Assembly (NCBI RefSeq): GCF_048403405.1
Contig: NZ_CP183129.1
Direction: 5' to 3' (one strand)
Length of the DNA stretch: 64,000 nucleotides
Source of the DNA: Escherichia coli
GTDB taxonomy: Bacteria; Pseudomonadota; Gammaproteobacteria; Enterobacterales; Enterobacteriaceae
The notes under the pieces were generated by a model that searched no databases, was not told the origin of the DNA, and worked only from the letters and a program-made list of their open reading frames with translations. Both the position numbers and the translations under genes were made by a program. Shown here in pieces: positions 20,942 through 35,929 of the stretch (its first letter is position 1; each line of letters starts with the position of its first letter).

Positions 20942-22419
20942 TGACAAACAGTTATCTCGAGTATTTTCTCACGCTGCTGGCCTGGGTGGTGAATAACGGA
21001 TTGTGGTCGGTACTGACCAGCACCGGGCTGTTTGCGCTGCCGCTGGTCTTTAAAGTGCTGGGGATCTGGCTGAAAGTGCGGGAAGAGGGGGAGGATGAGG
21101 GTAACAAAGGTTCACTGGCAATTGTGCGTATCGAGAACGCGCTTTACGGCGCCTTTGTGGTGATCCTGTTTTGTTGTGTGCCGTTGATGGAGGTGAGTGT
21201 CAGTACCCTGCAATTTGATACCAGCCGGACCAAAACCTGCGGCACCTGGACCCCGGTGAAGCCGGCGGAATCCGGTTACAGCGGCGTGGTGTCGTCACTG
21301 GATAATCAGACAGCCAAAATCCCGCTGTGGTGGATGCTGGTACATAAGCTGTCGAAAGGGGTGACTCAGGCGGCGGTGGCCAGCATTCCGTGCCGGCCGG
21401 ATTTGCGTCAGGTGCGTTTTGAGGTGCAGCACAGCAACATTAAAAATCCGGCGCTGGCTGCCGCACTTCAGGATTTTACGGATGACTGTTACTCACGTGC
21501 CCTGTATGACTGGAAAGCGAAAGATCAGGGAAAAACACAGGATGAAAAAACGTTACAGGATATCACCTGGATAGGCTCGGCCACCTTTATGAAAGGGGAA
21601 TATCATCAGATCCAGTCACGGACACCGCGGGCGGGCTTTCCCTGGGATGCCGACCGGGATGACGGGTATGCGAATGTCAACGGCAACGGTTACCCGACCT
21701 GTTATCAGTGGTGGAATGATGCGAATGCAGGGTTACTGAAACTTGTCAAAGAGCAGACCGATGAAGGGATGTGGCTGCGTGCCCGGGCGGCGATGAAGCT
21801 GATTAATAAAAACTCGAAAGAGTTTGAGGAGGCCATCGTCCGCCGGCTGGTGAGTCCGGCGAATCTGGATGTCTCCGGCGGCCGGGTATACCGGGGATAC
21901 GGGGGTAATGCGGATATGACGGTGATGAATGAGCTGGCCAGAATGGGAGGGGTAGCCGGGACTTCGCTGGCGTCACTGGGGGCATTCCCTGCCTTTGATA
22001 CGATGCGACAGTCCTTACCGATGGTGCAGGGGCTGATGTTAATGGCGGTGTATATCATGATCCCGATGGTGCTGATGTTTTCGGCGTATGAATTTAAGAC
22101 GGCGATAACGGTGACGTTTGTGATATTTGCGCTGAACTTTCTGACATTCTGGTGGGAGCTGGCACGCTGGATAGACAGCTGGATGATGGAGGCACTGTAT
22201 AATTCCGATACGCACAGTCAGTGGAATATGAACGGGCTTCAGAACACGTCTGATGATGTCATTATGAACCTGGTAATGGGAACGATGTTTTTGGTGTTGC
22301 CGGCGTTGTGGTTGACAGCATTTGGTTGGGCTGGAGCTAAAGTTGGGTCCGAGCTAGGTAATATGACATCTAACGCGACTTCACCTGCGCATAGTGCGGG
22401 GGGAAAGGAGGACAGTTAG
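20938..22419 (+). CDS. TraG-like conjugal transfer membrane protein (TraG N-terminal domain type)
   Basis: 493 aa polytopic membrane protein, last gene of the GC-rich pore block. Confidence 0.5.
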   Translation: MMTNSYLEYFLTLLAWVVNNGLWSVLTSTGLFALPLVFKVLGIWLKVREEGEDEGNKGSLAIVRIENALYGAFVVILFCCVPLMEVSVSTLQFDTSRTKTCGTWTPVKPAESGYSGVVSSLDNQTAKIPLWWMLVHKLSKGVTQAAVASIPCRPDLRQVRFEVQHSNIKNPALAAALQDFTDDCYSRALYDWKAKDQGKTQDEKTLQDITWIGSATFMKGEYHQIQSRTPRAGFPWDADRDDGYANVNGNGYPTCYQWWNDANAGLLKLVKEQTDEGMWLRARAAMKLINKNSKEFEEAIVRRLVSPANLDVSGGRVYRGYGGNADMTVMNELARMGGVAGTSLASLGAFPAFDTMRQSLPMVQGLMLMAVYIMIPMVLMFSAYEFKTAITVTFVIFALNFLTFWWELARWIDSWMMEALYNSDTHSQWNMNGLQNTSDDVIMNLVMGTMFLVLPALWLTAFGWAGAKVGSELGNMTSNATSPAHSAGGKEDS

Positions 22420-22493
22420 CAGAACAAGCTATTTCTAAAAAAGTTAACTAATAATATTTTGAAGCCAGCTGCAAAATTTAGTTTTGTGGCTGG

Positions 22494-22901
22494 CTAATCT
22501 TCGTCAATATTTATTCCGTTCATATAATATCCAAAACCTTGGTTGCCATTTCTAAAGTCGTCACTATTGCCAACGAGATTGGATTGCCATTCATTATTGT
22601 TATCAGTGGATTGAATGTTATTTCCTGAAGAAATATCAATGTGTTCTATTACAGAAAATAAAATCACCAACGCTCCAAAGGTAAATAGGATGTACAAACT
22701 GAAATAAGCCAGTAACGCGATGACTGCGAGAGTTATAGATACCAGTGGAATATGCCCCAGCCAACCCGGCATATTTTTGCTTTTGGCGCTTGCCACACAG
22801 TTCTTATCGAAAGCCTTCAATTTTTTGATTAGCCATTTTGCTTTATAAGCTGCTTTTATGCCCCAGCGTTCTCCTCTGGAAGCGGCTGTTTTATCACTCA
22901 T
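22494..22901 (-). CDS. hypothetical small membrane protein (AT-rich cargo)
   Basis: 135 aa, central long hydrophobic segment, Asn/Asp-rich tail, very low GC. Confidence 0.4.
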   Translation of the reverse strand: MSDKTAASRGERWGIKAAYKAKWLIKKLKAFDKNCVASAKSKNMPGWLGHIPLVSITLAVIALLAYFSLYILFTFGALVILFSVIEHIDISSGNNIQSTDNNNEWQSNLVGNSDDFRNGNQGFGYYMNGINIDED

Positions 22902-23243
22902 TTCCCCCTCCGGTAATCAGTGAGTCTGATTTATCTCATGCTTGTCGTCTATCGTTAATACAATTTTAGGTCGATTTTTAATCATTGTCTACATCTTGTG
23001 AGTTATGCACATATCCACGGTCACCAAGCCAGTGCAACCCGATGCCAACAAGCAATCGGGTAAACGGGAGCGTACAGGGCATCGGCCCTGATGGTGGCGG
23101 TGGGTATGTGTATAACTTTTTTGTTGCCTTCATATAAAAATCTTATTCTTTCATCTGGATGGATTTATTGAATTTGATTTTTTATGTCAGTTTAAGTAAG
23201 TTTTTAATATGTATCCGAGTCCTTGTATATAGGAGATGATAAT

Positions 23244-23543
23244 ATGAATTTTATTTTTTGGTTTGTGGTCTTAATAGGGGCGGGATATTTGTGGAGGAGG
23301 AGGGGTTGGTTCAGTAAAATAAGGAAGCAATACTCAAGGAGAAAAACAACATTAAATGGTAACAAAGGATGTTTATATAATAAAAAAAATGACAATGATG
23401 CTTTGGAAGGTAATGGGGATTGTAATAATTTTTATTCTGAGAATAAAGAAAGTTTCTTTTGGTTAATGATTGAGAGAGGTATTAAATTTTACAGAAAAGA
23501 ATATTTGACTACGATTACTGAAAAAAATATCATGATAAGTTAG
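23244..23543 (+). CDS. hypothetical small membrane protein (AT-rich cargo)
   Basis: N-terminal TM followed by basic stretch; RBS aggag 8 nt upstream of ATG 23244. Confidence 0.4.
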   Translation: MNFIFWFVVLIGAGYLWRRRGWFSKIRKQYSRRKTTLNGNKGCLYNKKNDNDALEGNGDCNNFYSENKESFFWLMIERGIKFYRKEYLTTITEKNIMIS

Positions 23544-23782
23544 TGAGCTGGTTTGGTGAGAAATGTTATATACATTGTCAGGTTAGTTTAGGGAGTTTAT
23601 TTATATTCCCAAAACAAAAAAATTTTACTGATGAAGAACAAAAACGTTTTTTTTCTGTTTGTAATAGAATGTCCTTGGATTTTATTTTAACATTTAAAAC
23701 TAATATGCCCTTCTTACGTGTTTCTGTTGACTCTATGAAAAATAAACCGCCTGTTTGGGATGTTTATGATAAATCCAAATAA
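23543..23782 (+). CDS. hypothetical small protein, overlapping previous stop
   Basis: 79-aa ORF, ATGA overlap with upstream gene suggests coupling. Confidence 0.3.
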   Translation: MSWFGEKCYIHCQVSLGSLFIFPKQKNFTDEEQKRFFSVCNRMSLDFILTFKTNMPFLRVSVDSMKNKPPVWDVYDKSK

Positions 23783-23957
23783 AAACATATCTGATTGTTG
23801 AGTTTTCGTGATTAAAGATGGCATTGATTATTAATACGATGAAGAACCAACAAGGGGATATTTAATAAAGAGAAAAAGGAGGATGTAAAATATTCTCCTT
23901 TTTCTTTATCGGGTATTGACGAAAAAAGAAAGTTTGATTAAATTTACCACGTTACAC

Positions 23958-24176
23958 CGTTGCTTAATGCAACATTGCCAATGCTTCGGTTGTCTGAGAG
24001 AAGCGCCTACGGGTGACAACAATGCCAATCCGGCAATCTGAGAGGAACGCCTACGGGTGATTGCCACTGCCAATCCTCGGGTCATCTGAGACGAGGGCCT
24101 ACGGGCGATGACAGAACTCCGTTCGTCCTTGAAATCGACGGAGGGTGATAACAGAATAGCGTTATCATCAGGATTA
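23958..24176 (+). repeat. Structured direct repeat copy 1 (three tandem hairpin units plus two further hairpins)
   Basis: Near-identical to 26392-26612; three about 45-nt units with stems gttgtc/gacaac, ggcaatc/gattgcc, gtcatc/gatgac around a conserved loop tgaga..gcctacggg. Confidence 0.8.
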
Positions 24177-24389
24177 ACTGCACTTCAGTGACCATGTCAC
24201 AGCTATCCGGTCACTCGGATATCCACAAAAAAGCAGAGTATGCGATAACGTGTATCTGCCTCTTCTGATGTGTTCTGACGAATACGTCCTGCTTTCTGCA
24301 ACCTTTGTATGCCCGGTATGACGCGTTTCCATTGCGCAGCTTTGGAAAGCGGCATCTTCGGAGCAATACATTGAGCAGCAGAATGATGG

Positions 24390-24436
24390 GCGTGCGTCAC
24401 TTTCGTCAAGTGAAACGAAGACAAAGTGACGCACGC
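24390..24436. promoter_or_regulatory. Long imperfect palindrome upstream of the recombinase-like gene
   Basis: gcgtgcgtcactttcgtc ... gacaaagtgacgcacgc, about 17-bp arms, no flanking T-run. Confidence 0.4.
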
Positions 24437-24824
24437 AAGTGCATACGCTCAGAACGCTTCAATACTGGTCTTACAGCAAAACTGACAATCTGACAGACAT
24501 GTAATGCATTGCTCAGAACGGCTGAAAGTCTTTCAACGCTCAACGTTTATATGATGATAAAAACGTATAACATTATGAAAAAAGGAGAAAAAACGACACG
24601 ATACCAAGGCGACGTCAGGAAACTGACGGACGGAGGTGCCCTGATAACGGGGGCCGGTCTGATGACCGCAAACAGTTCAGAGAACTGATTTGATACCTCT
24701 CAACAACTCAACCTTTTATCGCCCCGGTGCTCAGGTATCTGTCAGGTCGCAGGATGCGCAATATAAAACCGTCGCGCCGGGAAAAGGTAACCAGTTGAGA
24801 GCGAAAGAGGCGGAGAATCAGAGA

Positions 24825-25733
24825 ATGTCCAGAAGAGCAAAAGCCCTGTCCCGTGAAATGCATATCCTTGCACGTCAGGCCGGAGGGAGCTTTAAAACCA
24901 TTGCAGACCGGGTCAAAATTGCAGAACGGGTTGCGGCAGAGCTGGCCGGGTTGAATATTCAGATACGATCTGTTGAGCAACTGAAATCCCGCCATATTGA
25001 AATGTATATCCATGCCCGCAGAGAACAGAATATCAGTTTACGCAGCTGTCAAAACGAAATGTCGGCTATCCGGGCGATATTTCGTGTTGCCGGACGTCAT
25101 AAACTGGCTGACCCTAAACATGAGCGCCTCAGTAATGAGGCGCTGGGGCTTTCAGGTGCCAGCAGGGCTGGCACCCGTACCGCGATATCGGACGAGCGCT
25201 TTCACGAAGCGCTCGCTCGGATTGAGCCTTATGATCAGGGGGTGGCATTAACTATGCAGTTATCCCGTAGTCTGGGATTGAGAAATGAAGAAGCCGTGCA
25301 GTCAGTAAAATCATTACGGACCTGGCAACAGGCGCTTAAAAACGGTAAAGATCGCGTTCATGTGGTTTTTGGGACAAAAGGAGGCAGACCCCGTGAAGCA
25401 TTAGTGCCGGATAAAGCCCGTGTATTAACATTAATTAATAAAGCCATTGAATATGCGGATAAACATAACGGTTATTTAATTAATCGTCCGTCATTACATT
25501 CTGCCAAAGATCGTTATATTAATGTGATGCGACGGATAGGCGGATTTATTCACGAAGAATCAAATCATGGTTTACGGTATGCCTATGCTCAGGATGTTGA
25601 AAAATATTATCTCAGTCAGGGATTCAGTCAAAAGGAAGCCTATGCATTAACCTCCATGGATTTAGGGCATGGTGACGGTCGTGGCGATTATATTAAACGG
25701 GTTTATAGTCAGAAAGGAGATATTGAGGAATAA
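24825..25733 (+). CDS. tyrosine recombinase-like protein (integrase-fold)
   Basis: Motifs in canonical order: LGLRNEE (Arg), HGLRYAYA (HxxR), LGHGDGRGDYIKRVY (candidate Tyr nucleophile); start taken at ATG 24825 after aagaggcggaga, though the ORF could extend to 24690. Confidence 0.5.
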   Translation: MSRRAKALSREMHILARQAGGSFKTIADRVKIAERVAAELAGLNIQIRSVEQLKSRHIEMYIHARREQNISLRSCQNEMSAIRAIFRVAGRHKLADPKHERLSNEALGLSGASRAGTRTAISDERFHEALARIEPYDQGVALTMQLSRSLGLRNEEAVQSVKSLRTWQQALKNGKDRVHVVFGTKGGRPREALVPDKARVLTLINKAIEYADKHNGYLINRPSLHSAKDRYINVMRRIGGFIHEESNHGLRYAYAQDVEKYYLSQGFSQKEAYALTSMDLGHGDGRGDYIKRVYSQKGDIEE

Positions 25734-25740
25734 GATAAAA

Positions 25741-26352
25741 ATGAAAGTCTGTTTAATTATTTTGTTTATTAATTTTGCTTTTTGTTTTCCGTTAATGGCG
25801 AAGACGTTATTTTTAGGTGATTCATTAACGGCTGTTTATGAAATGTCAGCAAAATATGTTTTGGATGAAAAAATAAAAACAGAATATGTTTCCGGTTCGG
25901 GGTTAATAAATAAAAGTAAAAAAGATTGGATCGCTTTCGTGAATAATTTCGATTTGCGGGAGTTTGATAATGTGATTATTAGTCTCGGAACAAATGATTT
26001 TGTTCAATATGGTTCGGATGAATGGCTGAAATATTACAGTCTGGTATTTCAATTCATTGCTGAAATTCAAAGTGAAAATCCGTTAGCGACAATTGTCTGG
26101 ATATCTCCACCACATTTAAAAAATCCGGAACATGAACGTTATTTAATACATACCCGGCATATAATTAAACACAGTGCGATGTTATTAAATATTCATTATC
26201 TGGATATTAATCAGCCTCATATATTAGGAACGCAATGGCAATCTGTTATTCATAATGAAACTGTACGAACTGATGATGGAATACATATTACCCGTAAAGG
26301 GGGAGTACGGGTGATCAGAGAAGTGGTAAAAATCCTGAATGGGCAGGATTGA
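25741..26352 (+). CDS. secreted SGNH/GDSL-family hydrolase (esterase/acylhydrolase)
   Basis: Signal peptide then GDSL block (LFLGDSLTA), GTND block, C-terminal DDGIH; very low GC; RBS gagga. Confidence 0.6.
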   Translation: MKVCLIILFINFAFCFPLMAKTLFLGDSLTAVYEMSAKYVLDEKIKTEYVSGSGLINKSKKDWIAFVNNFDLREFDNVIISLGTNDFVQYGSDEWLKYYSLVFQFIAEIQSENPLATIVWISPPHLKNPEHERYLIHTRHIIKHSAMLLNIHYLDINQPHILGTQWQSVIHNETVRTDDGIHITRKGGVRVIREVVKILNGQD

Positions 26353-26391
26353 CAAAGATAAAAAAACGGCTAAAAATGAATCTGCTTATCT

Positions 26392-26612
26392 CGTTGCGTA
26401 ATGCAACTTGCCAATGCTTCGGTTGTCTGAGAGAAGCGCCTACGGGTGACAACAATGCCAATGTTCCGGCAATCTGAGAGGAACGCCTACGGGTGATTGC
26501 CACTGCCAATCCTCGGGTCATCTGAGACGGGAGCCTACGGGCGATGACAGAACTCCGTTCGTCCTTGAAATCGACGGAGGGTGATAACAGAATAGCGTTA
26601 TCATCAGGATTA
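26392..26612 (+). repeat. Structured direct repeat copy 2
   Basis: Same orientation as 23958-24176; differs by 3 substitutions and two small indels. Confidence 0.8.
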
Positions 26613-26640
26613 TTTTTACGCAACGCTTCATATAACCTGC

Positions 26641-26700
26641 CCGCTGACGGGGAAATCACCCGTCATCAGGGAATTTCTCCGTTTTTTCAGGAGAAATTCA
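26641..26700 (+). promoter_or_regulatory. Two-hairpin leader sequestering the RBS of the downstream gene
   Basis: gacggg-loop-cccgtc followed by tttctcc-TTTTTT-ggagaaa ending 4 nt before ATG 26701; same architecture at 28081-28147. Confidence 0.5.
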
Positions 26701-27063
26701 ATGAAGGTATCTACATTTCCGGAATCGTCTTTTTTTGACGATCTGCACTCTCTCACGCAACTGCATCACCTCTCAGGTGAGCTCGACATGGTTCTTGCTT
26801 TTGTCCGTCTGGATATTGGCGAGCACCCGGACGAAGATAATTTTCCGCCAAACTTCTGGATAATCAGTGCCGTTGCAGAGCAACTGGGCGCGTTATCTGT
26901 GGAGGCTGATTTTACCCGTCCACATCTTGAGAAAATGGTCCGCGCTGTCTGGAAAGCGGCTGAGCAAACGCCTTATGCGTCTGACTTTCGCCGTATCTAC
27001 AACGATGCGATCAAAAATGCACAGTTTGAAGATCCGGTTGAAGCGCTGATGTTTGGTGCTTAA
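26701..27063 (+). CDS. hypothetical acidic protein (ICE cargo)
   Basis: 120-aa ORF directly after the structured leader. Confidence 0.45.
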   Translation: MKVSTFPESSFFDDLHSLTQLHHLSGELDMVLAFVRLDIGEHPDEDNFPPNFWIISAVAEQLGALSVEADFTRPHLEKMVRAVWKAAEQTPYASDFRRIYNDAIKNAQFEDPVEALMFGA

Positions 27064-27144
27064 CGGCGGACATTCACTGATTTTATGACCCATACGGGAA
27101 AACATCCCGTGAGGGCTGTATTCCCTTATCTGAGGATAGCCCTT

Positions 27145-27462
27145 ATGACTCTTTTTACATTGAATTATGGTGTTGCCCACGTAATGTCTGGTATTGCCAG
27201 TTATTTATTTCCGCATTCCCGTGTTTCTCAGCAACTGAAGGCCGTTGCTAATGATGCCCGGATGCTGAAAATCACCGCAGAAGAACTGGAGGTGATACGT
27301 TTGGACGAAAAACGGATGTATCAGAGCGGAGATTACAGAGAACTGCCGTTTATTGAGCTTGATTTGTATACAACGGCATTTCGTTTTGGCGCCCTGATTT
27401 ACTATGGACTCGCAAACCGGTGCCCCCGCATTTTTGCTTCACCGGCTGACAGTCATCGCTGA
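27145..27462 (+). CDS. hypothetical protein (ICE cargo)
   Basis: ORF with gagga RBS; preceded by an acggga-loop-tcccgt hairpin. Confidence 0.35.
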   Translation: MTLFTLNYGVAHVMSGIASYLFPHSRVSQQLKAVANDARMLKITAEELEVIRLDEKRMYQSGDYRELPFIELDLYTTAFRFGALIYYGLANRCPRIFASPADSHR

Positions 27463-27628
27463 GCGGCTCGATCCGGAAATCTGGAATGAAGCCTGGCGCT
27501 GGGGTTACCGCTGCTGCCTGCAACACGAAAATGAAAAGCATGTAACCGACTGATTTAACGGACTCACAGGTGTCAGTCAGCTACCCTGAAATGGGGCTGC
27601 TTCCATTTACTGATCAGGTTTGATAACC

Positions 27629-28051
27629 ATGATTTATGGCATTACCCGCGGACTGTTCTTTGTGGCCGATCACGTCTGTCGCTATTCCCGGAGTTGGGAA
27701 TGGCTGATGTGGCTGGTTGAGGAAGCCCGGACACTGCGAAATGTTGAGGCTGATTTGAAACTGGCTGAAAGGTATGCCGGTGAGCAAAACCGCCCTCATT
27801 CCATTTCGCTGATGAAGTGTACGCTTTATGATGCCGGATTTGCTTACGGCAGATTATTACTGTGGCGTGCGGATGGTCTGATGAGACCCTGGCCGGCATG
27901 TCTGCTTCGCCGTTTACCGGATATCGGTCAGCGGATTGATGCAGTGATCTGGCAGAAAGGCTGTGAAGCCGGCTTGGATGAGACCGTCAGTGAATGGATG
28001 GCAATGGAGATGGCTGATGAATACCTTGTCGGTATCGAACTGAGCGACTGA
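27629..28051 (+). CDS. hypothetical protein (ICE cargo)
   Basis: 141-aa ORF, Trp-rich. Confidence 0.4.
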   Translation: MIYGITRGLFFVADHVCRYSRSWEWLMWLVEEARTLRNVEADLKLAERYAGEQNRPHSISLMKCTLYDAGFAYGRLLLWRADGLMRPWPACLLRRLPDIGQRIDAVIWQKGCEAGLDETVSEWMAMEMADEYLVGIELSD

Positions 28052-28080
28052 TTTGCCGGCATTCATTCTTTTTTTACTTA

Positions 28081-28147
28081 CCTACCCGACGGGGAAACTC
28101 CCCGTCAGGTGGACGTTTCTCCGTCTTTTTTTACCGGAGAAACACAC
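28081..28147 (+). promoter_or_regulatory. Two-hairpin leader sequestering the RBS (second copy)
   Basis: gacgggg-aaact-ccccgtc and tttctccg-tcttttttta-cggagaaa immediately before ATG 28148. Confidence 0.5.
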
Positions 28148-28504
28148 ATGTCTGTTTTACTGCCAGAAAACAAACCGTTTTCATTTCTGAGTCTGATCAT
28201 GCAACGGCTGTACCGTTTTTATGACCGTATACCGTTTGTTTCGTCAGGGATACCCGGTGAATTACCGTGGATAAGTAACCGAACCGGCCGGCGCGCTTAC
28301 CGTGCGACGGTGGTGAAAGTGAATCCCCGGCAGTTCAGGATCCGCATTACTGTACGTCTGGGCGCGCATTCGAAAGAATACCGCTTTCATTCGTTGATAA
28401 CCTCGCTGGACAGCAGGACATTTTGTTCCATAAAAGCGGCCTCCCGTGCCGGATTTGCACTGACATACCAGCTGGCACAGGTGCGTTATGCCTGGTGTCG
28501 CTGA
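28148..28504 (+). CDS. hypothetical protein (ICE cargo)
   Basis: 118-aa ORF following the structured leader. Confidence 0.4.
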   Translation: MSVLLPENKPFSFLSLIMQRLYRFYDRIPFVSSGIPGELPWISNRTGRRAYRATVVKVNPRQFRIRITVRLGAHSKEYRFHSLITSLDSRTFCSIKAASRAGFALTYQLAQVRYAWCR

Positions 28505-28550
28505 TTTGTTGTACTGATAGCACCATTGACTTTTTGTTATGACCCCGCCC

Positions 28551-28592
28551 GGCGGATTGATTTCCGTCAGGAGATGAATCCGCCATTTTTTT
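28551..28592 (+). terminator. Rho-independent terminator
   Basis: Stem ggcggatt / aatccgcc followed by attttttt. Confidence 0.6.
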
Positions 28593-28614
28593 AATCAGAA
28601 TGAGGATTTATCAC

Positions 28615-29127
28615 ATGGGATATACACATTATTTTACACAAAAACAAAGCGTTGACCCCCTGATGTGGCAGAACTTCCGTGAACATCTGGACAAGCTCTA
28701 TCACCACTATCTGGCCAATCCCATATCCGCAGAGCAGATTTGCGGCGGATACCCAGATAAACCTATTGTGTTGTGTGATGGCCTGGAGGAAAAACGGCTG
28801 AATGATGGCTCATTATTCACCGACGACGGTGAGGCGCTTTGTTTTAACGGTAATGCGGCTGATGACATGAATCATGAGACGTTTATTGTTCAGCGCGAAA
28901 TCCCCGTAGAGGACTACTGGGATTTCTGCAAGACAGCATACAAACCCTATGACGTGTTTGTAGTCGCGGCATTACTGTTGTTGTACAACCTGTGCCCGGG
29001 ATATTTTTCGGTCTCTTCTGACGGGGATATCCGGGACTGGCAGCCGGTGCTGGACTATGTCAGTCAGGTATTTCCTTATCTTATCCTGACGTTACCGGAA
29101 GGGATAGGTTTACCGGAGGCAGGATAA
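28615..29127 (+). CDS. hypothetical protein (ICE cargo)
   Basis: ORF with gagga RBS 8 nt upstream of ATG 28615 (alternative ATG at 28600). Confidence 0.4.
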   Translation: MGYTHYFTQKQSVDPLMWQNFREHLDKLYHHYLANPISAEQICGGYPDKPIVLCDGLEEKRLNDGSLFTDDGEALCFNGNAADDMNHETFIVQREIPVEDYWDFCKTAYKPYDVFVVAALLLLYNLCPGYFSVSSDGDIRDWQPVLDYVSQVFPYLILTLPEGIGLPEAG

Positions 29128-29774
29128 TGGCCAGAGCCTGTACGATACGGGAACTGATAGCGGATTTATCCCGCTGCAATCCGGAGGCATTCGTCTTGTG
29201 TGAGATGTGGTTCCCCGATGATGTTACCTATGTTGATGAAACGGCTTGTCCGGCAGAGACACGGGCAACATTAACGCATGTTGCACATCATTTTGATGCG
29301 GAGCTGGGGATCAACTGGGACACGCTGGCGTGTGCGTTATCGTGTGTCAGAGATGCTGAGCAGAAGGGACTCGATATTTACTTTTATGCCAGTGAAAAGC
29401 GTGGTACAGACAAAAGCCGGATACCCGCCTCACGTTACGCAGAAGCGGACAGCGACGGCGATATTGAAGTCGGGTATTTCCGTAAGGTTAATGCGCTGTT
29501 TAAGTGGGTGCATGACCATATCGGGGCTTTTGAGAACTGTGAAAAGGTGCTGGTGACAGAGGCCCATCTGCGGGCTTTACAGCAGGACTTGCAGGCACTG
29601 ACACCGGAAAACTGTCAGACACGGTTCCCGACCACTGAGGGCTTTTTCTTTGGTTCAACGGCTTATGATGAGGCGTACTGGGCTGATGTGGAAGGCGTCA
29701 GACGCTGGCTGTCAGAGATAACGGAGACGTTTGACTTTGACGCAGAGTCACTGTTTTTTGTGGCCTGGTGGTAA
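29127..29774 (+). CDS. hypothetical acidic protein (ICE cargo)
   Basis: 215-aa ORF coupled to upstream gene. Confidence 0.4.
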   Translation: MARACTIRELIADLSRCNPEAFVLCEMWFPDDVTYVDETACPAETRATLTHVAHHFDAELGINWDTLACALSCVRDAEQKGLDIYFYASEKRGTDKSRIPASRYAEADSDGDIEVGYFRKVNALFKWVHDHIGAFENCEKVLVTEAHLRALQQDLQALTPENCQTRFPTTEGFFFGSTAYDEAYWADVEGVRRWLSEITETFDFDAESLFFVAWW

Positions 29775-29780
29775 TCAGGT

Positions 29781-29854
29781 AAGGTGTTTCCCCGGGAAGC
29801 ACTGAACACATTTTAATCAGTGTTTCCACTGGAAACGCCGGTTGAAAATTAACC
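29781..29854. promoter_or_regulatory. GTTTCC-N3-GGAAAC palindrome pair upstream of ardC, related to the traD-upstream array
   Basis: gtgtttccccgggaagcac then gtgtttccactggaaacgcc followed by ggttgaaaattaacc (inverse of ggtgaattttcaaac at 3276). Confidence 0.5.
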
Positions 29855-29926
29855 ATATTGTTTTTTCACCTGATGGTGTATCTCACCGTCAGGACGGGAT
29901 ACACCTTTTTTATTGAGGGTATTCCG

Positions 29927-30901
29927 ATGAAAAAATCTGACCGTAAACGCCGTCCGGCAGCGGATAAGCCGGTTCGCGATATTTATCAGGAAGTGACTGA
30001 CCGTATTGTGGCCGCGCTGGAAAAAGGCACCCGTCCGTGGAAACGACCATGGCGGCCGTCGGAAGGGACAGGCACCGGTTTTCCGGTGAACGCCCTGACC
30101 GGTCATTCCTACCAGGGGATAAATGTGCTGCTGTTATGGTTGTCGGCGGCGGAGCAGGGCTTTGGTTACGATATCTGGCTGACTTACCGTCAGGCACAGC
30201 AACTGGGTGGCCATGTCCGTAAAGGCGAAATGGCGACGAATACTGTGATATTCAAACCGGTGAAGGTGCCGGCAAAAGACCGTCACGGTGAGCTGCTGCG
30301 GGATGAACACGGTGAGGTGGTGATGACGGAGGTGCCGATGATAAAGGCGAATCCGTTATTTAACATAGCCCAGTGTGATGACCTGCCGGCGCATTTTTAC
30401 GAAAACCGGCGACTACCCGGAGAGGAGACAGCAGGGATAACCCTGCCGGCCACGCACCGGGTGCTGGATATCCTGAATGCCAGCGGCGTGAAGGTGACCA
30501 GTGCGGCGCAGAACCGGGCGTATTACAGTCCGTCACAGGACCGGATTGTGATGCCGCTGTCGTCACAGTTTGACCGGAATGCCGATTACCAGGCCACCTT
30601 ACTGCATGAGTTGGTGCACAGTACCGGTCATCCGTCCAGGCTGGCCCGTGAAGGCATCACCTCATCGTCCCTGAAGTTTGGTGACCCGCTGTACAGTTTT
30701 GAGGAGCTGGTTGCGGAAATGGGCAGCGCTTTTCTTTGTGCGCAGTTAAGCGTCGAGGGAGAAGTGAACCATGAAAGCTATCTTGACAGCTGGCTGCGGG
30801 TACTGAAATCGGACAAAAAAGCGTTGTTCCGGGCCGCCGGGCAGGCCCGCCAGGCCTGTGAGTTTTTACTGAATGTGGCCGCATCCCGACAGGCCGCGTA
30901 G
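29927..30901 (+). CDS. ardC: ArdC-like antirestriction protein (ssDNA-binding N-domain plus zincin-like metalloprotease domain)
   Basis: HExxH motif in LLHELVHSTGH, size about 325 aa, basic N-terminus; RBS gaggg. Confidence 0.7.
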   Translation: MKKSDRKRRPAADKPVRDIYQEVTDRIVAALEKGTRPWKRPWRPSEGTGTGFPVNALTGHSYQGINVLLLWLSAAEQGFGYDIWLTYRQAQQLGGHVRKGEMATNTVIFKPVKVPAKDRHGELLRDEHGEVVMTEVPMIKANPLFNIAQCDDLPAHFYENRRLPGEETAGITLPATHRVLDILNASGVKVTSAAQNRAYYSPSQDRIVMPLSSQFDRNADYQATLLHELVHSTGHPSRLAREGITSSSLKFGDPLYSFEELVAEMGSAFLCAQLSVEGEVNHESYLDSWLRVLKSDKKALFRAAGQARQACEFLLNVAASRQAA

Positions 30902-30910
30902 GAGACTGCG

Positions 30911-31210
30911 ATGAACAAAATGACCATTATCCGCTTTCAGTTACTGGTACATCAGTTACTGCAAGTGCATTACGGCATTACGCTGAGTGATACCGGATTG
31001 TCCGATGATGCTGAGGTGTCCCGGATGATTGAACTCGGGATATCGCCGGTATCGGTGGTCAACCGTCTGGTGGATAAGTACCACCTGGATAAACTGAATG
31101 CATCCTGTTATCTGCCGGCATCCCCGTATGTCAGTGACAGCGATGCCTTACTTGCACAGGCTCAGCTGAGCGGTGCCATTAACCCGGATGTCATGCCGGA
31201 TAATCCTTAA
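30911..31210 (+). CDS. hypothetical protein
   Basis: 99-aa ORF coupled downstream of ardC. Confidence 0.4.
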   Translation: MNKMTIIRFQLLVHQLLQVHYGITLSDTGLSDDAEVSRMIELGISPVSVVNRLVDKYHLDKLNASCYLPASPYVSDSDALLAQAQLSGAINPDVMPDNP

Positions 31211-31230
31211 CGATTAACGACTGACATCTT

Positions 31231-31286
31231 TCCCGTGAGGGCTTGTTCCTCACGGGATAAGCCCTCTTTTTTATTCTGAAAAGAGG
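31231..31286 (+). promoter_or_regulatory. Tandem hairpins (terminator/attenuator-like) with second hairpin covering the RBS of the 31295 gene
   Basis: tcccgtgagg / cctcacggga 10-bp stem, then cctctttt / aaaagagg stem ending 8 nt before ATG. Confidence 0.45.
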
Positions 31287-31294
31287 ACATCATC

Positions 31295-32296
31295 ATGCCA
31301 AACTGGTGCTCGAACCGACTTGACATCACCTTACACAACGCGGCGGATATGCCGGCTCTTAAACACTGGATATATGCGGATGATGGGATACCCGCCTGGC
31401 AGACGGCGATAGCACAAAGTCTGCATTTGTTGCTGGCCGGCTGCGCGGGGATACTGAAACCGGTCAGACCGCTGTCTTTTCCGCCGTTACCGGAACTGAC
31501 TTCATACGGTGCAACCGGGCCTGTTTCCCCGGGAAACACGGCTTTCACGCACTGGGTTGACCTGCTGATGACTGCACCGGATTTGACACCGTCATGTTGT
31601 CAGCAAATCCATCAGTGGTATCAGATGTGGTTATCTGAAGGCGGGGCGTACCATTCCTGGGACTCGCTGACGGCGACGCAGAAAGCGAGACTGTCCCCGT
31701 TGTTATCGGGAAGCAGTTTTGACTGGCTTAACCGGTTTACCGGAGAGGATGAGAGCCGGGTGGCGACAGCCTGGGAGGATATTCAGTACCTTCGCAGTAC
31801 CGGAGAAGCCATACCGATGGATATGCGGACTCTGTTACCGACCAGCCTTGCGGCTGAATTACACGGTTTTAACGGCTGTTTATGGAAAACACCGGAGGTC
31901 ATCTGGCGGCAGGCGCGCTGGCAGGCGTTTGCCCCCGGTAACAGTACATATCACCTTTATCAGTGCCGTTATGGTGTGAAATGGCCGAACGGCAGTGGTT
32001 TTCACTGTATTGATGGCGGGTATGCGACGGAGTTATCCGCAGAGTTTGATACTCCGTGGGGGCCGCCGTCAGCAGCGGTTTTGTGTGCTCTGTCTGCGCG
32101 TTTCCGCTGTCAGGTCCGTCATGTCTATGCCGAAGAAGGCTGTGGTTTCTGCGGATACAGCGAGTATGACCATGGCCGGTTAACCGACCATGAATCTGAT
32201 GAGATTGAGTTCAGTGATGAAGAGAATGAGGACGGTTTCCAGGATGTGACGGGACCGGACTATATTCTTGATTCATTGCCACATTACGGAGGGTGA
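31295..32296 (+). CDS. hypothetical protein (N-terminus MPNWCSN; possibly DUF1281-like, unverified)
   Basis: 333-aa ORF, Trp-rich N-domain, acidic C-terminus. Confidence 0.45.
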   Translation: MPNWCSNRLDITLHNAADMPALKHWIYADDGIPAWQTAIAQSLHLLLAGCAGILKPVRPLSFPPLPELTSYGATGPVSPGNTAFTHWVDLLMTAPDLTPSCCQQIHQWYQMWLSEGGAYHSWDSLTATQKARLSPLLSGSSFDWLNRFTGEDESRVATAWEDIQYLRSTGEAIPMDMRTLLPTSLAAELHGFNGCLWKTPEVIWRQARWQAFAPGNSTYHLYQCRYGVKWPNGSGFHCIDGGYATELSAEFDTPWGPPSAAVLCALSARFRCQVRHVYAEEGCGFCGYSEYDHGRLTDHESDEIEFSDEENEDGFQDVTGPDYILDSLPHYGG

Positions 32297-32379
32297 GGTT
32301 TCCGTACTGATTTAACTGACTGAAAACCCGGTAGTGATACCGGGTTTTTTTATTTTTTTCGGAAAACTAATTTCGGCTT

Positions 32380-32766
32380 TTGTTTTATTCCCGCATTGTT
32401 ATCGTGATGCCGTCATTGAATGAGATGGGGGAGAGTGTGATGAGATGTGAATTTGGGCAGGGTGTGAGGGAGTGGGCTCAGGATTTTTGGAATGAAATTC
32501 TGTTTCCTTTTTTTGTCACAGCCGGACTTTTGTTGCCACTGATTCTGGTTGTGGGCGTTTTCCTGGTCTGGGATGAACAGCGCCAGGCTGAGTGGGGGCG
32601 TTATTACCTGACGGAATGTCAGTTGGTGGAAAGAAACAGAAATGCGGGCTTCTGGTCAGGTCGGGAAAATATTCTGCAATGCGGAATGACCCGGGAGCAT
32701 GTGAATGCGGACGCGTATGAAAAGGCCATCCGTGCCTGGCAGCAGAAACAGACAGAGACAGAATAA
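32380..32766 (+). CDS. hypothetical membrane protein
   Basis: 128-aa ORF with one hydrophobic helix. Confidence 0.35.
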   Translation: MFYSRIVIVMPSLNEMGESVMRCEFGQGVREWAQDFWNEILFPFFVTAGLLLPLILVVGVFLVWDEQRQAEWGRYYLTECQLVERNRNAGFWSGRENILQCGMTREHVNADAYEKAIRAWQQKQTETE

Positions 32767-32941
32767 TAAAACATTATTCATGTAATCTTCTGTTTTGTTG
32801 CCGGAATTATTTTTGTGGATGAGTTAACGTAATGAAAATAAGGTGCATTTATTATTTATTCTTATCCTGATATTAAAATAATTTATGTTTTATTTAATGT
32901 TGCGTTGTTGTTTTTACCGAATTAAAGAGGCAGTAACACCG

Positions 32942-34534
32942 ATGTTACCGTGGTTTCGTAAATCGCTTTCCCGGAAAGCGGAAGAGAAAACATTGCGTGT
33001 TTCCCCGGGAAACACGCAGGAAAGGCCATTATTTATCCGTGACAGTGACGGCTTTTATTTACCGCAGGCAGCTGACGTATTGCTGACCACACCGCAGCGG
33101 CAAAACTGGTTACAGCAAATCAGCCGGGTGGTAGCGTTACCGGATAACCAGTACCGGGCACTTTGCCTGTCTCCTTTGCAGACGCTGGCAGAACGACTTC
33201 AGTGTGTGCCGGCATCAAAAACCGGGAAATATGCCGGCGAAGGGGGATTGCTGGATTTAACGCTGAATACGACAGCCTGGTGTATGCGGATGTCCCAGAA
33301 AGAGATGCTGCCCCGCGGGCTTCCGTCGGAAGAGCAGAGCCGTCAGTTCAGCGCCTGGAATGTGTGTGTTTTTTATACCGGACTGTTTTACTGGTTACCG
33401 TTAACGGCACAGTTTGAGGGACAACTGAACAGCCTGTCGGCGTGGCAGCCGGGGATGAGTGCGCCCACCGTACCGTATCGTTTTCGCTTTCATGAGCCGG
33501 TGCCGGATATGACGCATTTTCGCCGGACGACGGGGGCCATGATGGCTTTCCGGCTATTACCGGAGAAGGTAATCCACTGGTTGTCGGGTACACCAAAGGC
33601 GCTTCAGGCGTTGTCTGACGTGGTGACCGAGCCGGTAAACGGTGATAATGATTTACAGCGTGTGCTGAATGAGGCTCTGGCTGCGTTCCCCGCCGGTGCA
33701 TTGCCGGCATTTTCTTCCGTTGTTTCTATGTCAGCGCCTGATGCTTCGTCTTCAGTGCTATCAGGGCAGCCGGAGAATGATATCGCGTCATTGGCGCCTG
33801 CTGAATTGGCGCAAAAGCCACAACCTGAAACTCCGTCTGTAACATCTGTATTGCCTCCGGAGTCTGTTACTTCAGAAAAAACAGAGAACGGAATTCACTG
33901 CGATATACCGCTAATGGTAGTTGCAGAAGCAGAAGGTGCGGTTGTCCATGGGGCACTTGATTCTGCTGATGAAAAAACTGTCTCAGATATGTCTCCTCCG
34001 TTATCTGAGGATATGAAATATGCACTTGAATTATCAGGTTTAATGCCGGAAATCTTATCTGATACTCAGACGGGCAATCGTGATGAGAAGGATGAACAGC
34101 GCGAAAACTGTCTGAGTATAAAAAATGAAGGAGAGGCTTTCTGGGCGTGGTTTAAGTCCGGATTATTGGGCGGAAAACTGGCAATAAATACGCCGGATGC
34201 GAAGGTTCACTGTGTCATGGAGTATTTGTTTTGCCAGAGTCCGGCTGTTTTTTATCAGTACATACAGGAGGCGGGTAAAAATCCGGATGATATCGGCCAT
34301 ATTATTTCTTCTTTTGAATCCCTTAAATTGCACCGGATTATTCGTCATGATACCCGACAAACAGGGCATTTCAGGGCTCGAATTTATGGTGAAAAACTGA
34401 ATCCGCTGAGTGATAACAAAACATTAATTACGTTATCCCATAAAAAAATCAATGGTTACATGATTAAAGGACGTCAGATTTTTGGCATGAATATGCCGGA
34501 GGAATCATTGTTTATTCGTATTGTCGGAAGTTAA
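32942..34534 (+). CDS. large ICE protein next to the integrase; putative relaxase-like (positional inference only)
   Basis: 530-aa ORF with aagagg RBS and AT-rich promoter region; no recognisable relaxase motif found by eye. Confidence 0.3.
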   Translation: MLPWFRKSLSRKAEEKTLRVSPGNTQERPLFIRDSDGFYLPQAADVLLTTPQRQNWLQQISRVVALPDNQYRALCLSPLQTLAERLQCVPASKTGKYAGEGGLLDLTLNTTAWCMRMSQKEMLPRGLPSEEQSRQFSAWNVCVFYTGLFYWLPLTAQFEGQLNSLSAWQPGMSAPTVPYRFRFHEPVPDMTHFRRTTGAMMAFRLLPEKVIHWLSGTPKALQALSDVVTEPVNGDNDLQRVLNEALAAFPAGALPAFSSVVSMSAPDASSSVLSGQPENDIASLAPAELAQKPQPETPSVTSVLPPESVTSEKTENGIHCDIPLMVVAEAEGAVVHGALDSADEKTVSDMSPPLSEDMKYALELSGLMPEILSDTQTGNRDEKDEQRENCLSIKNEGEAFWAWFKSGLLGGKLAINTPDAKVHCVMEYLFCQSPAVFYQYIQEAGKNPDDIGHIISSFESLKLHRIIRHDTRQTGHFRARIYGEKLNPLSDNKTLITLSHKKINGYMIKGRQIFGMNMPEESLFIRIVGS

Positions 34535-34549
34535 AAGCAGGAGGTGTTT

Positions 34550-35620
34550 ATGAAAGATAATCACAGTTCTGATGAACATCAGCAGAAAGTGGATGTATGG
34601 GAGCAAATGCTGAGTAATTACTTTTACAATAAAGTATTACGGCCGGATACGGAGAAAACATACCGTAAGATGGTACGTCTTTTTCTGCGTTATTGCGGAG
34701 TTTGTGAAAATGCGTTACCGCTACCGGATGAAGTGACACATGAGCATGTGCTGAGATGGCGAAGAAATGAGCTGAATATTCAGAAAGTCCGGGAACGGAC
34801 ATGGAACACAAAAACCAGGCATATGCAGTCTCTGTATAATTATTGGATCAAAAAAGGGATTGTTTCACTTAAAGAAAACCCGTTCTCAGAAACACAAATT
34901 GAACCGGGTGAAAAACAGAAAAAAGTCTATACACAATCACAACTGAGAACGATTTATCGTATTCTGGAACAATTTCAGCAACAGGAAAATATGCTGCCAC
35001 CTGATCAGGCTCACTTTCAGGCATGTGCGGTTTATCCCACTCGATTCTGGTTTGCTGTGCTGGAAACGCTGAGGCTGACGGCTATTCGTTTTAACCAGCT
35101 GATTAACCTGCATATTGGCGATCTGGATTTTGAGGAGTGTACGATCACATTGCGCAGTGAAAGCAGTAAAAATCACCGGGAATATCAGATTGCTTTTGTT
35201 CAGCCACTACGTTGTTTACTGGCGCCCTTGGTTGAGGAAATGCGTTGTCACGGGGCGGATAAAAACGATATTTTGTTTGATGTTCATCGTCTTTATCATA
35301 AACGACTATCCCGCTCTGAAACTCCACTCAGTCAGACGATACGTTCTTTTTTCCGTCGTTTATCAAAGGAATGTGGATTTCATGTCAGTCCCCATCGTTT
35401 CAGACATACACTGGCGACGACATTAATGAAACATCCTGAACGTAATATGCAATTGACGAAACAGATGTTAGGACACCGTAGTCTCTCTTCAACTATGGAA
35501 TATATTGCTCTGGATGCATACAGTACAGTCAGGATCTTGGAGAATGAGTTAGGTGAGTTTTTAACAATGGGATTAGGTGGTGAACTTACAAGGCTAGCAT
35601 CAAAAAGACAGAGGATGTGA
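34550..35620 (+). CDS. int: tyrosine site-specific integrase (ICE integrase)
   Basis: C-terminal catalytic region HRFRHTLAT ... LGHRSLSSTMEYI; RBS gcaggagg; adjacent to tRNA-Phe. Confidence 0.85.
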   Translation: MKDNHSSDEHQQKVDVWEQMLSNYFYNKVLRPDTEKTYRKMVRLFLRYCGVCENALPLPDEVTHEHVLRWRRNELNIQKVRERTWNTKTRHMQSLYNYWIKKGIVSLKENPFSETQIEPGEKQKKVYTQSQLRTIYRILEQFQQQENMLPPDQAHFQACAVYPTRFWFAVLETLRLTAIRFNQLINLHIGDLDFEECTITLRSESSKNHREYQIAFVQPLRCLLAPLVEEMRCHGADKNDILFDVHRLYHKRLSRSETPLSQTIRSFFRRLSKECGFHVSPHRFRHTLATTLMKHPERNMQLTKQMLGHRSLSSTMEYIALDAYSTVRILENELGEFLTMGLGGELTRLASKRQRM

Positions 35621-35637
35621 TATAAATAAAAAATATT

Positions 35638-35671
35638 TACACAAAGTTGACTATTTTATCAACTTTGTGTA
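35638..35671. promoter_or_regulatory. Perfect 13-bp inverted repeat downstream of int (terminator or integrase/att-associated site)
   Basis: tacacaaagttga ctatttta tcaactttgtgta; a second hairpin aagggtgtt/aacaccctt lies at 35690-35714. Confidence 0.4.
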
Positions 35672-35853
35672 TAAGCTGGATTTGATTGAGAAGGGTGTTC
35701 TAGGAAAACACCCTTACTTGATAAATCATTGTCAACCACGTGAGAAGTCATGAACGTGATTACAACTGAAATTCAAGTTTTAACCGAGCGTTGGAGATCT
35801 CACTTCCAGCGACCGTGCTAGGGAAACGGTTACACCATTTCCGAAAGGAAAGA

Positions 35854-35929
35854 TGGTGCCCGGACTCGGAATCGAACCAAGGACACGGGGATTTTCAATC
35901 CCCTGCTCTACCGACTGAGCTATCCGGGC
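35854..35929 (-). tRNA. pheV: tRNA-Phe (GAA anticodon)
   Basis: Reverse complement reads GCCCGGATAGCTCAGTCGGTAGAGCAGGGGATTGAAAATCCCCGTGTCCTTGGTTCGATTCCGAGTCCGGGCACCA, the canonical E. coli tRNA-Phe, 76 nt with CCA. Confidence 0.95.

Follow-up and report, generated by a model that had tools for sequence, protein, structure and literature searches.

Introduction

The 64,000-nucleotide stretch of Escherichia coli DNA analysed here (NCBI RefSeq assembly GCF_048403405.1, contig NZ_CP183129.1; hereafter the window) carries an integrative and conjugative element (ICE) in which short hairpins recur directly in front of start codons, and the question raised by this locus is what these hairpins do for the genes that follow them. 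The ICEs of the ICEclc/ICEHin1056/PAPI-1/ICEPm1 family spread resistance, virulence and catabolic genes, and to our knowledge next to nothing is known about the regulation of their establishment or leading-region genes. A sequence-only reading of positions 26,641 to 28,147 had described two hairpins upstream of the genes starting at 26701 and 28148, the second of which buries the Shine-Dalgarno (SD) sequence, and had proposed either translational control or expression from single-stranded DNA on entry into a recipient. In the present study, the leaders were folded, searched for in related loci and examined for covariation. We consider it rather probable, on the evidence of sequence and folding, that they form a previously uncatalogued family of cis-acting mRNA leaders of ICEPm1/ICEclc/ICEHin1056-type ICEs, which would gate translation and, in AT-rich hosts, probably attenuate transcription.

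Results

Six co-oriented genes of the ICE, with start codons at 26701, 27145, 28148, 28615, 29927 (ardC) and 31295, have a leader of about 65 nt directly 5' of the start codon, which consists of two hairpins, the GC-rich P1 and, after it, P2, with the SD sequence as its 3' arm. P2, with stems of 9-12 pairs, is present in 6/6 of these leaders, and its 3' end lies 0-8 nt from the AUG in every case. RNA folding, which had been suggested as a check and was compared here with dinucleotide shuffles, gave z-scores of -4.7 at 26701, -6.2 at 28148, -4.4 at 31295 and -3.1 at 27145. All copies listed in the sequence-only reading are real, namely the two-hairpin architecture 5' of 26701 and 28148, the similar pair at 31231-31286 before 31295, and the first hairpin before 27145, where a full second hairpin is present too; two more copies had been missed, at 28615 (z -3.5) and at ardC (z -6.9).

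The description as two hairpins holds for P1 and P2 and is incomplete in one respect, as it had missed a third helix (T) with a U-tract, which would make the leader an alternative-structure switch or attenuator. When the leader is divided into segments A-B-C-D, P1 is A:B and P2 is C:D, where C is the anti-SD arm and D comprises the SD and the spacer. T is formed by A' and C, A' being the 3' part of A together with the P1 loop. A' nearly copies D (GGGGAAAC vs GGAGAAAC) and is complementary to C in five of the six window leaders, all but that of 27145; in these five, T, with a stem of 8-14 bp, is followed at once by U5-7. The octamer CCGTCAGG, common to several copies, is the apex of T (CC-GUCA-GG). 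The corresponding motif CCGTSAGG was found 18 times in the window against 3.5 expected; it was rejected as an independent signal, because its sites outside the leaders are coding and chance-like and inside the leaders it is the T apex.

All six leaders lie on the plus strand. Leader 1 (26637-26703) precedes a 120-aa gene with its AUG at 26701 and folds at -31.3 kcal/mol; it lies 85 nt 3' of a STAXI RNA and does not follow a gene. Its P1 core (26646-26664) pairs GACGGG (26646-26651) with CCCGTC (26659-26664), and its P2 pairs 26671-26680 with 26690-26699, including TTTCTCC (26674-26680), the loop GTTTTTTCA and the SD arm GGAGAAA (26690-26696), which ends 4 nt before the ATG. T spans 26646-26683, with A':C being GACGGGGAAAU:AUUUCUCCGU(U), and U5 follows at 26684-26688. 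Leader 2 (27084-27147, ATG at 27145) has P1 at 27094-27110 and P2 at 27111-27144; T pairing was looked for in this leader and none was found, nor is there a U-tract, and it is a degenerate or translation-only copy. The PGAP/RefSeq start of this gene (27184) is contradicted, because the end of leader 2 coincides with the ATG at 27145, and a GAGGA lies 8 nt 5' of this ATG; the annotated start is probably 13 codons too short. Leader 3 (28080-28150; -35.5 kcal/mol) precedes a 118-aa gene with its AUG at 28148. It comprises P1 at 28082-28112 with the core GACGGGGAAACTCCCCGTC (28088-28106), and P2 at 28115-28143 with GTTTCTCCG (28115-28123), an 11-nt T-rich loop and CGGAGAAAC (28135-28143), the GGAGAAA of which ends 5 nt before the ATG. 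Its T (28088-28125, GACGGGGAAAC:GUUUCUCCGUC, including one G.U) is followed by U7 at 28126-28132.

Leader 4 (28548-28617) precedes a 170-aa gene with its AUG at 28615, which overlaps the gene at 29127. It has a weak P1 (28548-28571), P2 at 28573-28612 and, as T, a 14-bp stem with a GUCA loop at 28551-28584 (GGCGGAUU:AAUCCGCC), followed by A+U7 at 28585-28592. Leader 5 (29864-29929), 5' of ardC, folds at -41 kcal/mol with flanks and has P1 at 29869-29893, P2 at 29895-29926, the T arms GGUGUAUC (29875-29882) and GAUACACC (29898-29905) and U6 at 29906-29911. Leader 6 (31227-31297) precedes a DUF1281 gene with its AUG at 31295; P1 is at 31231-31257 and P2 at 31263-31286, and T (31237-31266; 13 pairs, UCAC loop, GAGGGCUU:AAGCCCUC) is followed by U6 at 31267-31272. 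This T was the top-ranked terminator-like site in a consensus scan of 23500-36000. Beyond the A':C arms, inner pairs complete each T to an ordinary hairpin, most plainly in leaders 4 and 6.

As a separate observation on this last leader, window positions 31266-31310 alone are matched at 91-93% identity in two E. coli genomes, NZ_CP071259.1 (96463-96507) and NZ_CM149569.1 (95450-95494). The matched 45 nt comprise the U-tract, the 3' arm of P2 and the first DUF1281 codons; they lie in unannotated DNA and may be a remnant or a further leader copy.

The alternation between the helices was followed by cutting each RNA just 5' of the SD arm and refolding it. In these truncated transcripts, T was the minimum-free-energy (MFE) structure in four window copies: 28148 (T -25.2 vs P1 -22.6 kcal/mol), 28615 (-24.4 vs -10.9 kcal/mol), 31295 (-23.0 vs -19.8 kcal/mol) and 26701 (-18.0 vs -12.5 kcal/mol, or -16.2 to -17.9 for P1 with outer pairs). 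At ardC, P1 was ahead, with -19.1 kcal/mol for the MFE containing P1 (P1 alone -17.3) against -11.3 for T. Stepwise folding of the growing chain passed from P1 to T and then to P1+P2; T is the MFE while the polymerase would cover the U-tract and the D arm (at 28148, relative positions 57-70) and supersedes P1 only once C has emerged. T combines a GC-rich stem with a U-tract and shares segment A with P1. For the full leader, thermodynamic folding gave P1+P2 as the ground state, in which the SD and spacer are paired. If the energy needed to expose the SD is estimated as the difference between the full MFE and the T state, it amounts to 8-13 kcal/mol for four of the five T-bearing leaders and to about 1.6 kcal/mol at 28615, where P1+P2 and T are nearly isoenergetic because the full fold is just -26.0 kcal/mol against -24.4 for T.

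The leader was then sought in ArdC-anchored loci fetched from 80 genomes. The ardC leaders of Xenorhabdus, Chimaeribacter, Lelliottia and Morganella, of four Pasteurellaceae genera, of many Pseudomonas and of two metagenome-assembled genomes (MAGs) fold as P1+P2 with their own A':C complementarity, for example GGGAUUG:CAAUCCC in Chimaeribacter, GGGAAC:GUUCCC in Pseudomonas and the compensatory GGUGUACU:AGUACACC in the Xenorhabdus ardC orthologue. A covariance model (CM), R1, was built from 13 ardC leaders of other genera with P1+P2 as its sole structure, and gave dozens more same-strand matches 5' of other genes; it was rebuilt from the 50 best matches as R2. At E<=0.01, R2 gave 116 matches in 0.98 Mb, of which 111 were on the ardC strand and the other 5, on the opposite strand, all overlapped same-strand sites. 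The covariance search re-found 5/6 window leaders at 28-51 bits, namely leaders 1 (28.0 bits, E 7.6e-5), 2 (42.2 bits, E 6e-9), 3 (50.7 bits), 5 (34.1 bits) and 6 (37.3 bits); leader 4 was not matched at E<=0.01 and was recognised by folding instead. The rest of the 64 kb, including the non-ICE and type IV secretion system (T4SS) parts, gave zero matches.

An R2 match was present in 46/46 gamma-proteobacterial loci, and so the leader is conserved in homologous loci, the absence of which had been named earlier as grounds for abandoning the proposal; in 32 other ArdC loci (alpha-, beta-proteobacterial and others) R2 gave 0/32. Up to 5-8 copies occur per ICE (L019, L020, L024, L051). Of the 50 aligned matches, 47 were followed by an ORF of >=62 aa and all 50 by an ATG start. 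The proteins encoded 3' of the leaders belong to at least 22 unrelated families, which shows the leader to be modular and tied to the start codon and not to one gene. Among 34 Enterobacterales/Pasteurellaceae instances, T was the MFE of the truncated RNA in 23, and at least 5 U occurred within 8 nt after T in 24, against 2/12 in Pseudomonas. Two broader scans preceded the covariance model: a generic ViennaRNA scan, run over every start codon, gave too much noise in coding sequence rich in GC, and a scanner limited to intergenic leaders, which passed 153/984 against 7.6% in shuffles, served to harvest candidates only and was replaced by the model. With Rfam 15, zero leader matches were obtained in window 22000-36500 at E<=1, where STAXI, EFASI and tRNA were matched, and there was none in 11 related loci at the gathering threshold or in three Pasteurellaceae loci at E<=0.01. 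Literature searches found no published description of such ICE leaders.

Other kinds of ardC leader were observed in the same loci. In L010-L018 (Citrobacter, Salmonella, Lonsdalea, Atlantibacter; ~5540-5610 and 5900-5990), ardC has a third leader type with an outer GCCGGG...CCCGGC stem followed by TTCTTTAT, and the P1/T/P2 motif stands instead 5' of a 97-aa gene just upstream of ardC (48-55 bits). In the alpha-proteobacterial L048-L081, a different leader, about 80 nt 5' of ardC, is near-invariant across many genera (for example L048, 5920-6000); it ends ...GTGCGGACCGGGTTTGCCGTGACGGGTTGAGGGCTGGAGGAGAGGCCTCCGGCGCCCGTCGCGGAGAACCGCG-ATG, with nested inverted repeats around the SD, and had no Rfam match at E<=1. 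It may be another uncatalogued ardC leader.

Covariation was examined in the 50-sequence CM alignment with 500 shuffles and slid controls. For P1+P2, 86.5% of cells were paired against 71.3% in shuffles, both partners had changed in 164 cells where shuffles gave 53.7, and the covariation score reached 0.443 with a shuffle value of 0.184 (0/500 shuffles reach it; slid controls 0.05-0.10); these counts lean to this structure, as the CM alignment was fitted to P1+P2. The helices of P2 (3 and 4) were 77% and 93% paired, with both-side changes in 9/9 pairs. For T, which lies outside the model, 82.1% of cells were paired against 71.5%, the doubly changed cells numbered 43 (15.4 in shuffles), and the score was 0.371, the shuffles giving 0.218 (0/500; slid controls 0.07-0.14). 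Moreover, when RNAalifold was given a plain MAFFT alignment of 30 leaders, it selected the T pairs by itself, and these show compensatory changes; this alignment mixes two P1/P2 registers and was not used for P1/P2 counting. In an alignment-free comparison of 55 non-redundant scanner matches, 8 of them later deemed false positives, A' paired with its own C at a mean of -13.4 kcal/mol against -7.9 for non-cognate C (p < 5e-5; 0/20000 permutations). The orthologous leaders in a 93%-identical ICE (E. coli M6) differ by pair-preserving substitutions only (U.G to U-A, G.U to G-C). The earlier remark that the stems differ and yet stay paired therefore extends from copies within the window to these orthologues and across genera. 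Translational control by SD burial, the first of the two earlier proposals, is implied by this recurrent, covarying P2 ending so close to the AUG.

These pairings could also be the sum of static hairpins, with T/P1 a terminator or 3'-end stabiliser of the upstream gene, P2 separately damping the next gene and A':C complementarity a by-product. Each leader lies between two genes, where T with its U-tract would be an ordinary gene-end signal, and part of A':C is a near-invariant GGG:CYC that the SD imposes too. Against this, the most variable T pairs involve the P1 loop or its edge, which are free of P1 and SD constraint: columns 21/62 are CG in 17, UG in 10, AU in 9 and UA in 3 sequences, and columns 18/64 and 23/57 vary too. 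Further, the leader classes within one element each keep their own match (GGCGGAUU:AAUCCGCC, GGUGUAUC:GAUACACC and GAGGGCUU:AAGCCCUC), Pseudomonas keeps the A':C complementarity despite the missing U-tract, and leader 1 is preceded by STAXI and not by a gene. We therefore regard static hairpins as unlikely and favour mutually exclusive helices in one mRNA leader. A recurrent design explains many of the wobble pairs: A' reads GGGG where D reads GGAG, C (CUCC) pairs perfectly with D and via G.U with A', and B (CCCC) pairs perfectly with A' and would mismatch D, so that the cognate P1 and P2 are favoured and T is metastable.

On which strand, and in which nucleic acid, would the structure act? 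The G.U cells exceed the A.C cells, 64 vs 19 in T and 91 vs 47 in P1+P2, which places the structure on the coding-sense strand and so points to RNA. The sense A':C duplex averages -13.9 kcal/mol and its complement -11.9; of 47 leaders, 34 favour the sense duplex and 13 the complement, in a test biased by the choice of these leaders through sense-strand folding. Together with the distance of 0-8 nt to the AUG, the G.U excess points to a leader structure that acts in mRNA.

These data bear directly on the second earlier proposal, single-strand-specific expression on entry into a recipient, in which the hairpins would form on the transferred strand as a Frpo-like single-strand promoter or priming signal and allow expression before complementary-strand synthesis. 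The genes do point toward an AT-rich region 5' of the relaxase gene, the classical leading-region orientation, ardC is an establishment/anti-restriction gene, and the window copies fold well on either strand under DNA parameters (z -4.2 to -6.2), so that single sequences do not decide between RNA and DNA. Classical leading regions are transferred as the template strand, complementary to the coding-sense strand; with G.U far above A.C, this template strand would be mismatched in many instances. With 6-14 bp, the stems are too short to restore a -35 and a -10 box at 17-bp spacing, the region has 17 promoter-like hexamers against 17.9 expected, with only one overlapping a leader, the structure is locked to SD and AUG, and ordinary double-strand sigma70-like promoters lie 5' of the array heads. 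The proposal is not supported by these comparisons, and we hold a single-stranded DNA element to be very improbable; the leaders do not fit the hairpin of a Frpo-type promoter on the same grounds (stems <=14 bp, hexamers not enriched, and G.U above A.C favouring the non-template strand).

The leaders belong to an ICE of the TIGR037xx (ICEclc/ICEHin1056/PAPI-1) type on the E. coli chromosome, which occupies approximately 1-35930 of the window, is inserted at tRNA-Phe (~35857-35929) and carries the taaP adhesin and a TIGR037xx T4SS. Among complete E. coli genomes, 13 carry the region at 100% identity, and megablast of the region against PLSDB plasmids gave zero matches; the element is chromosomal, in an ICE. 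The ArdC protein of this ICE shows 100% identity to its counterparts in Proteus mirabilis ATCC 29906 and Providencia stuartii (L002, L003), by which the ICE is an ICEPm1-type element; the identical ArdC and the unchanged presence in 13 E. coli genomes indicate recent inter-genus spread of this element type.

The co-oriented array sits on the plus strand between the T4SS genes and the relaxase. It begins with four small hypothetical genes (26701, 27145/27184, 27629 and 28148), continues with an overlapping gene pair (28615 and 29127) and with ardC (29927), followed 10 nt on by a cbtA-like gene (30911), and the DUF1281 gene (31295) is the last before a canonical intrinsic terminator (32322-32359, plus strand), which ends the array with an 11/12-bp perfect stem (AAAACCCGGTA/TACCGGGTTTT), a 4-nt loop and a long T-run. 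A small ORF (32533-32766) lies 3' of this terminator, and an AT-rich stretch (32800-32940), plausibly the oriT or a promoter region, lies upstream of traI (32942), after which comes an integrase. From the gene orientation toward this stretch, the array is plausibly the leading region. As the genes at 29127 and 30911 directly adjoin the gene before them and lack their own leader, the array consists of units of one leader and one or two genes; folding found no structure in the leaders of 27629, 32533 and traI (z -0.5, -1.6 and +0.4). In searches of the ten array proteins against NCBIfam and PHROGs, only ArdC and families of no known function were obtained. The sequence-only reading had spoken of cargo genes, a term that does not fit, since the leader-bearing genes are a conserved relaxase-proximal backbone with ardC.

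The modular occurrence of the leader could also suit a cassette boundary or recombination site (attC-like or Xer-type) or a palindromic repeat element. The leader stands before genes of at least 22 unrelated families, the gene content of the array differs among relatives, and an integrase-domain gene (24825-25733) with STAXI and EFASI lies just upstream of the array. However, conserved core or box sequences are missing and copies in one element diverge yet stay paired; the element is fixed relative to SD and AUG, half of it being the ribosome-binding site (RBS), its strand asymmetry fits RNA, and it is absent from other parts of the ICE. We give such a site hardly any credence beside an mRNA leader. 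Integron attC sites in particular were excluded by inspection, as leader arms such as GTTTCTCC and GGAGAAAC do not match the RYYYAAC...GTTRRRY boxes, and the position of the leader is tied to the start codon.

At the probable head of the array, a promoter scan found a sigma70-like promoter, TTGACA-17-AAAAAT (26349-26377, plus strand), followed by a STAXI RNA (26392-26551, plus strand; Rfam, 123 bits). A second STAXI with promoter lies at 23916-24115 of the window, and an EFASI RNA (24593-24744, 78 bits) stands between this first-placed STAXI and the integrase-domain gene. The STAXI-EFASI-integrase order and the order of promoter, STAXI and first leader both recur in L004, L009 and L051, with promoter-STAXI sites at 1773-1932 and 4289-4443 (L004), 792-978 and 4184-4339 (L009), and 199-355 and 3565-3716 (L051). 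In the Pseudomonas loci L022 (promoter-radC motif site 4747-4880) and L030 (4674-4809), the place of STAXI is taken by the radC motif. Each STAXI or Pseudomonas-ICE radC motif lies about 12-14 nt 3' of a sigma70-like -35/17/-10, and the array-proximal copy is followed by the first P1/T/P2 leader within about 5-90 nt, an arrangement that suggests that the STAXI and radC motifs are the 5' ends of array transcripts. Also observed at this place was a 148-nt direct repeat, 99% identical, at 24029-24176 and 26465-26612, which takes in two-thirds of STAXI, from its 3' side, together with a hairpin further downstream (GGTGATAACAGAATAGCGTTATCATC) and a promoter-like site, TTGAAA-17-CAGAAT. By analogy with put of HK022 and EAR of Bacillus subtilis, STAXI and radC might in cis make the polymerase resist the T terminators. 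The leaders would then be checkpoints of processive antitermination, and a burst of ardC and about 20 uncharacterised gene families, probably anti-defence, would follow ICE activation or entry into a new cell. We put this forward as speculative, with little expectation that it holds; if true, it would give STAXI and radC a function.

Discussion

In the present study, the pairings of the leader can be arranged into a switch with two successive effects. T would be an intrinsic terminator or attenuator and P1 its antiterminator, and attenuation of transcription would probably operate in AT-rich hosts. Transcripts that read through would then lock C onto D, which would turn translation off, consistent with an SD-sequestering riboregulator whose buried SD and spacer covary with their partner. 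If T formed again on the full-length mRNA, it would free the SD and might hence serve as an anti-sequester ON conformation as well. The balance would differ by copy, T being dominant at 28615 and P1 at ardC, and this variation in relative P1/T strength would provide gene-specific set-points. Taken together, the leader may be a dual lock on transcription and translation, by which ardC and the neighbouring small genes would be silent by default; candidate triggers for its opening are 30S capture, an RNA-binding factor, polymerase kinetics and a processive antiterminator.

Several points weigh against this switch, in addition to the two biases already given for the CM alignment and for the strand energies. 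The effects on termination, read-through and translation are predictions from sequence; by default both outcomes would be OFF, and we found no activating trigger. T is missing from leader 2 (27145) and loses to P1 at ardC. Most Pseudomonas instances have a T of 6 bp (GGGAAC:GUUCCC) at about -7 kcal/mol without a U-tract, so that termination cannot be the universal function of the leader; the A':C complementarity itself is kept there. P1 is made first and is stable, and nested-path barriers from P1 to T are 13-22 kcal/mol, calculated by a search over nested structures that cannot represent pseudoknotted invasion via the P1 loop. With such high barriers T might rarely form, unless by a loop-toehold route, and the complementarity of the P1 loop to C is what toehold invasion would need.

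The doubly OFF default calls for an activator, and for this reason an operator for a trans-acting regulator should be considered, be it CsrA/Rsm-like, of Hfq or ProQ/FinO type, or a small RNA (sRNA), with P1 and P2 as its recognition hairpins and T as the regulator-induced conformation. Most leaders have GGA motifs in A' and D, and T with its U-tract resembles Hfq/ProQ-binding modules; such an operator would be compatible with the switch proposed here and would name its trigger. It is disfavoured in that no unpaired nucleotides are conserved across genera except SD-like runs, no candidate regulator gene was identified, and the GGA of A' lies inside the P1 stem, and we think it improbable. Three further classes of leader were excluded. 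An RNA thermometer (FourU/ROSE) was judged from fold energies, as P2 has 9-12 pairs and opening of the SD would need 8-13 kcal/mol in 4/5 T-bearing leaders and 1.6 at 28615. A riboswitch was set aside since the leader has two simple hairpins and no conserved unpaired positions beyond the SD-like run and the pyrimidine-rich P2 loop. Leader-peptide or repY-type coupling was dismissed because inspection revealed no SD-bearing start codon inside the window leaders; the sole GTG (28109) lacks an SD and shares the reading frame of the main ORF, and upstream stop codons lie about 27-100 nt 5' of segment A'.

The proposed switch resembles known systems in outline and differs from them in detail. Like classical terminator/antiterminator and SD-sequestering leaders, the ICE leaders have overlapping exclusive helices, a transient GC stem with a U-tract, an upstream hairpin competing for the 5' arm, and an SD paired in the ground state. 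Unlike classical attenuators, they lack a leader peptide and a conserved core of aptamer type, and no protein is known to bind them; pairing 1:3 (A:C), with B looped out, stands in place of 2:3 as the alternative, arm C serves both as the 3' arm of the terminator and as anti-SD, and the leader is repeated along the array and does not stand once per operon head. In repZ/repY of IncI-alpha and IncB plasmids, the loop of an upstream hairpin forms a pseudoknot with the arm that sequesters the repZ RBS and so exposes it, and this control requires a translated leader ORF ending in an inhibitory hairpin, and an antisense RNA. The two systems share an upstream-hairpin loop complementary to the 5' arm of an RBS-burying hairpin, while in the ICE leaders the complementarity extends into the P1 stem and a U-tract follows; in the window leaders inspection gave no leader ORF, and no consistent antisense promoter was found.

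Among conjugative elements, the nearest functional analogue is cATTpLS20, a zipper-type attenuator 5' of the conjugation operons of pLS20-family plasmids in Gram-positive bacteria (PMC13401043). It is likewise a conserved, factor-independent-looking attenuator with an upstream stem-loop complementary to an intrinsic terminator; it differs in having one 456-nt leader per operon with a long imperfect stem, in the lack of SD sequestration, and in showing no homology to the ICE leaders in sequence or architecture. Frpo, a hairpin that is long and imperfect, re-creates the -35 and -10 boxes on the transferred strand (PMC11541004). It shares with the ICE leaders the position of a hairpin-forming sequence 5' of genes in a probable leading region near anti-restriction genes. 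The ICE leaders are distinguished from it by being short, free of promoter hexamers, placed on the SD and marked by a sense-strand pairing signature. STAXI (RF01728) and radC (RF01754) are orphan structured motifs near ssb, topoisomerase, antirestriction and integrase genes of mobile elements (PMC2864571). They occur in the same genomic neighbourhood and on the same strand as the ICE leaders, with a different structure of tandem pseudoknotted hairpins, about 150 nt long, at array heads; neither model matches the leaders.

Conclusion

The leader described here is a compact natural case in which one RNA arm may serve as half of a terminator and as anti-SD, and its position relative to the array heads places the orphan STAXI and radC motifs in a concrete operon context. 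As a covariance-model marker, it would help to find early-expressed ICE genes and candidate anti-defence genes, a service that Frpo is said to have rendered for plasmids. A modular RNA lock before ardC and more than 20 unrelated small genes would add a new regulatory layer to these ICEs.

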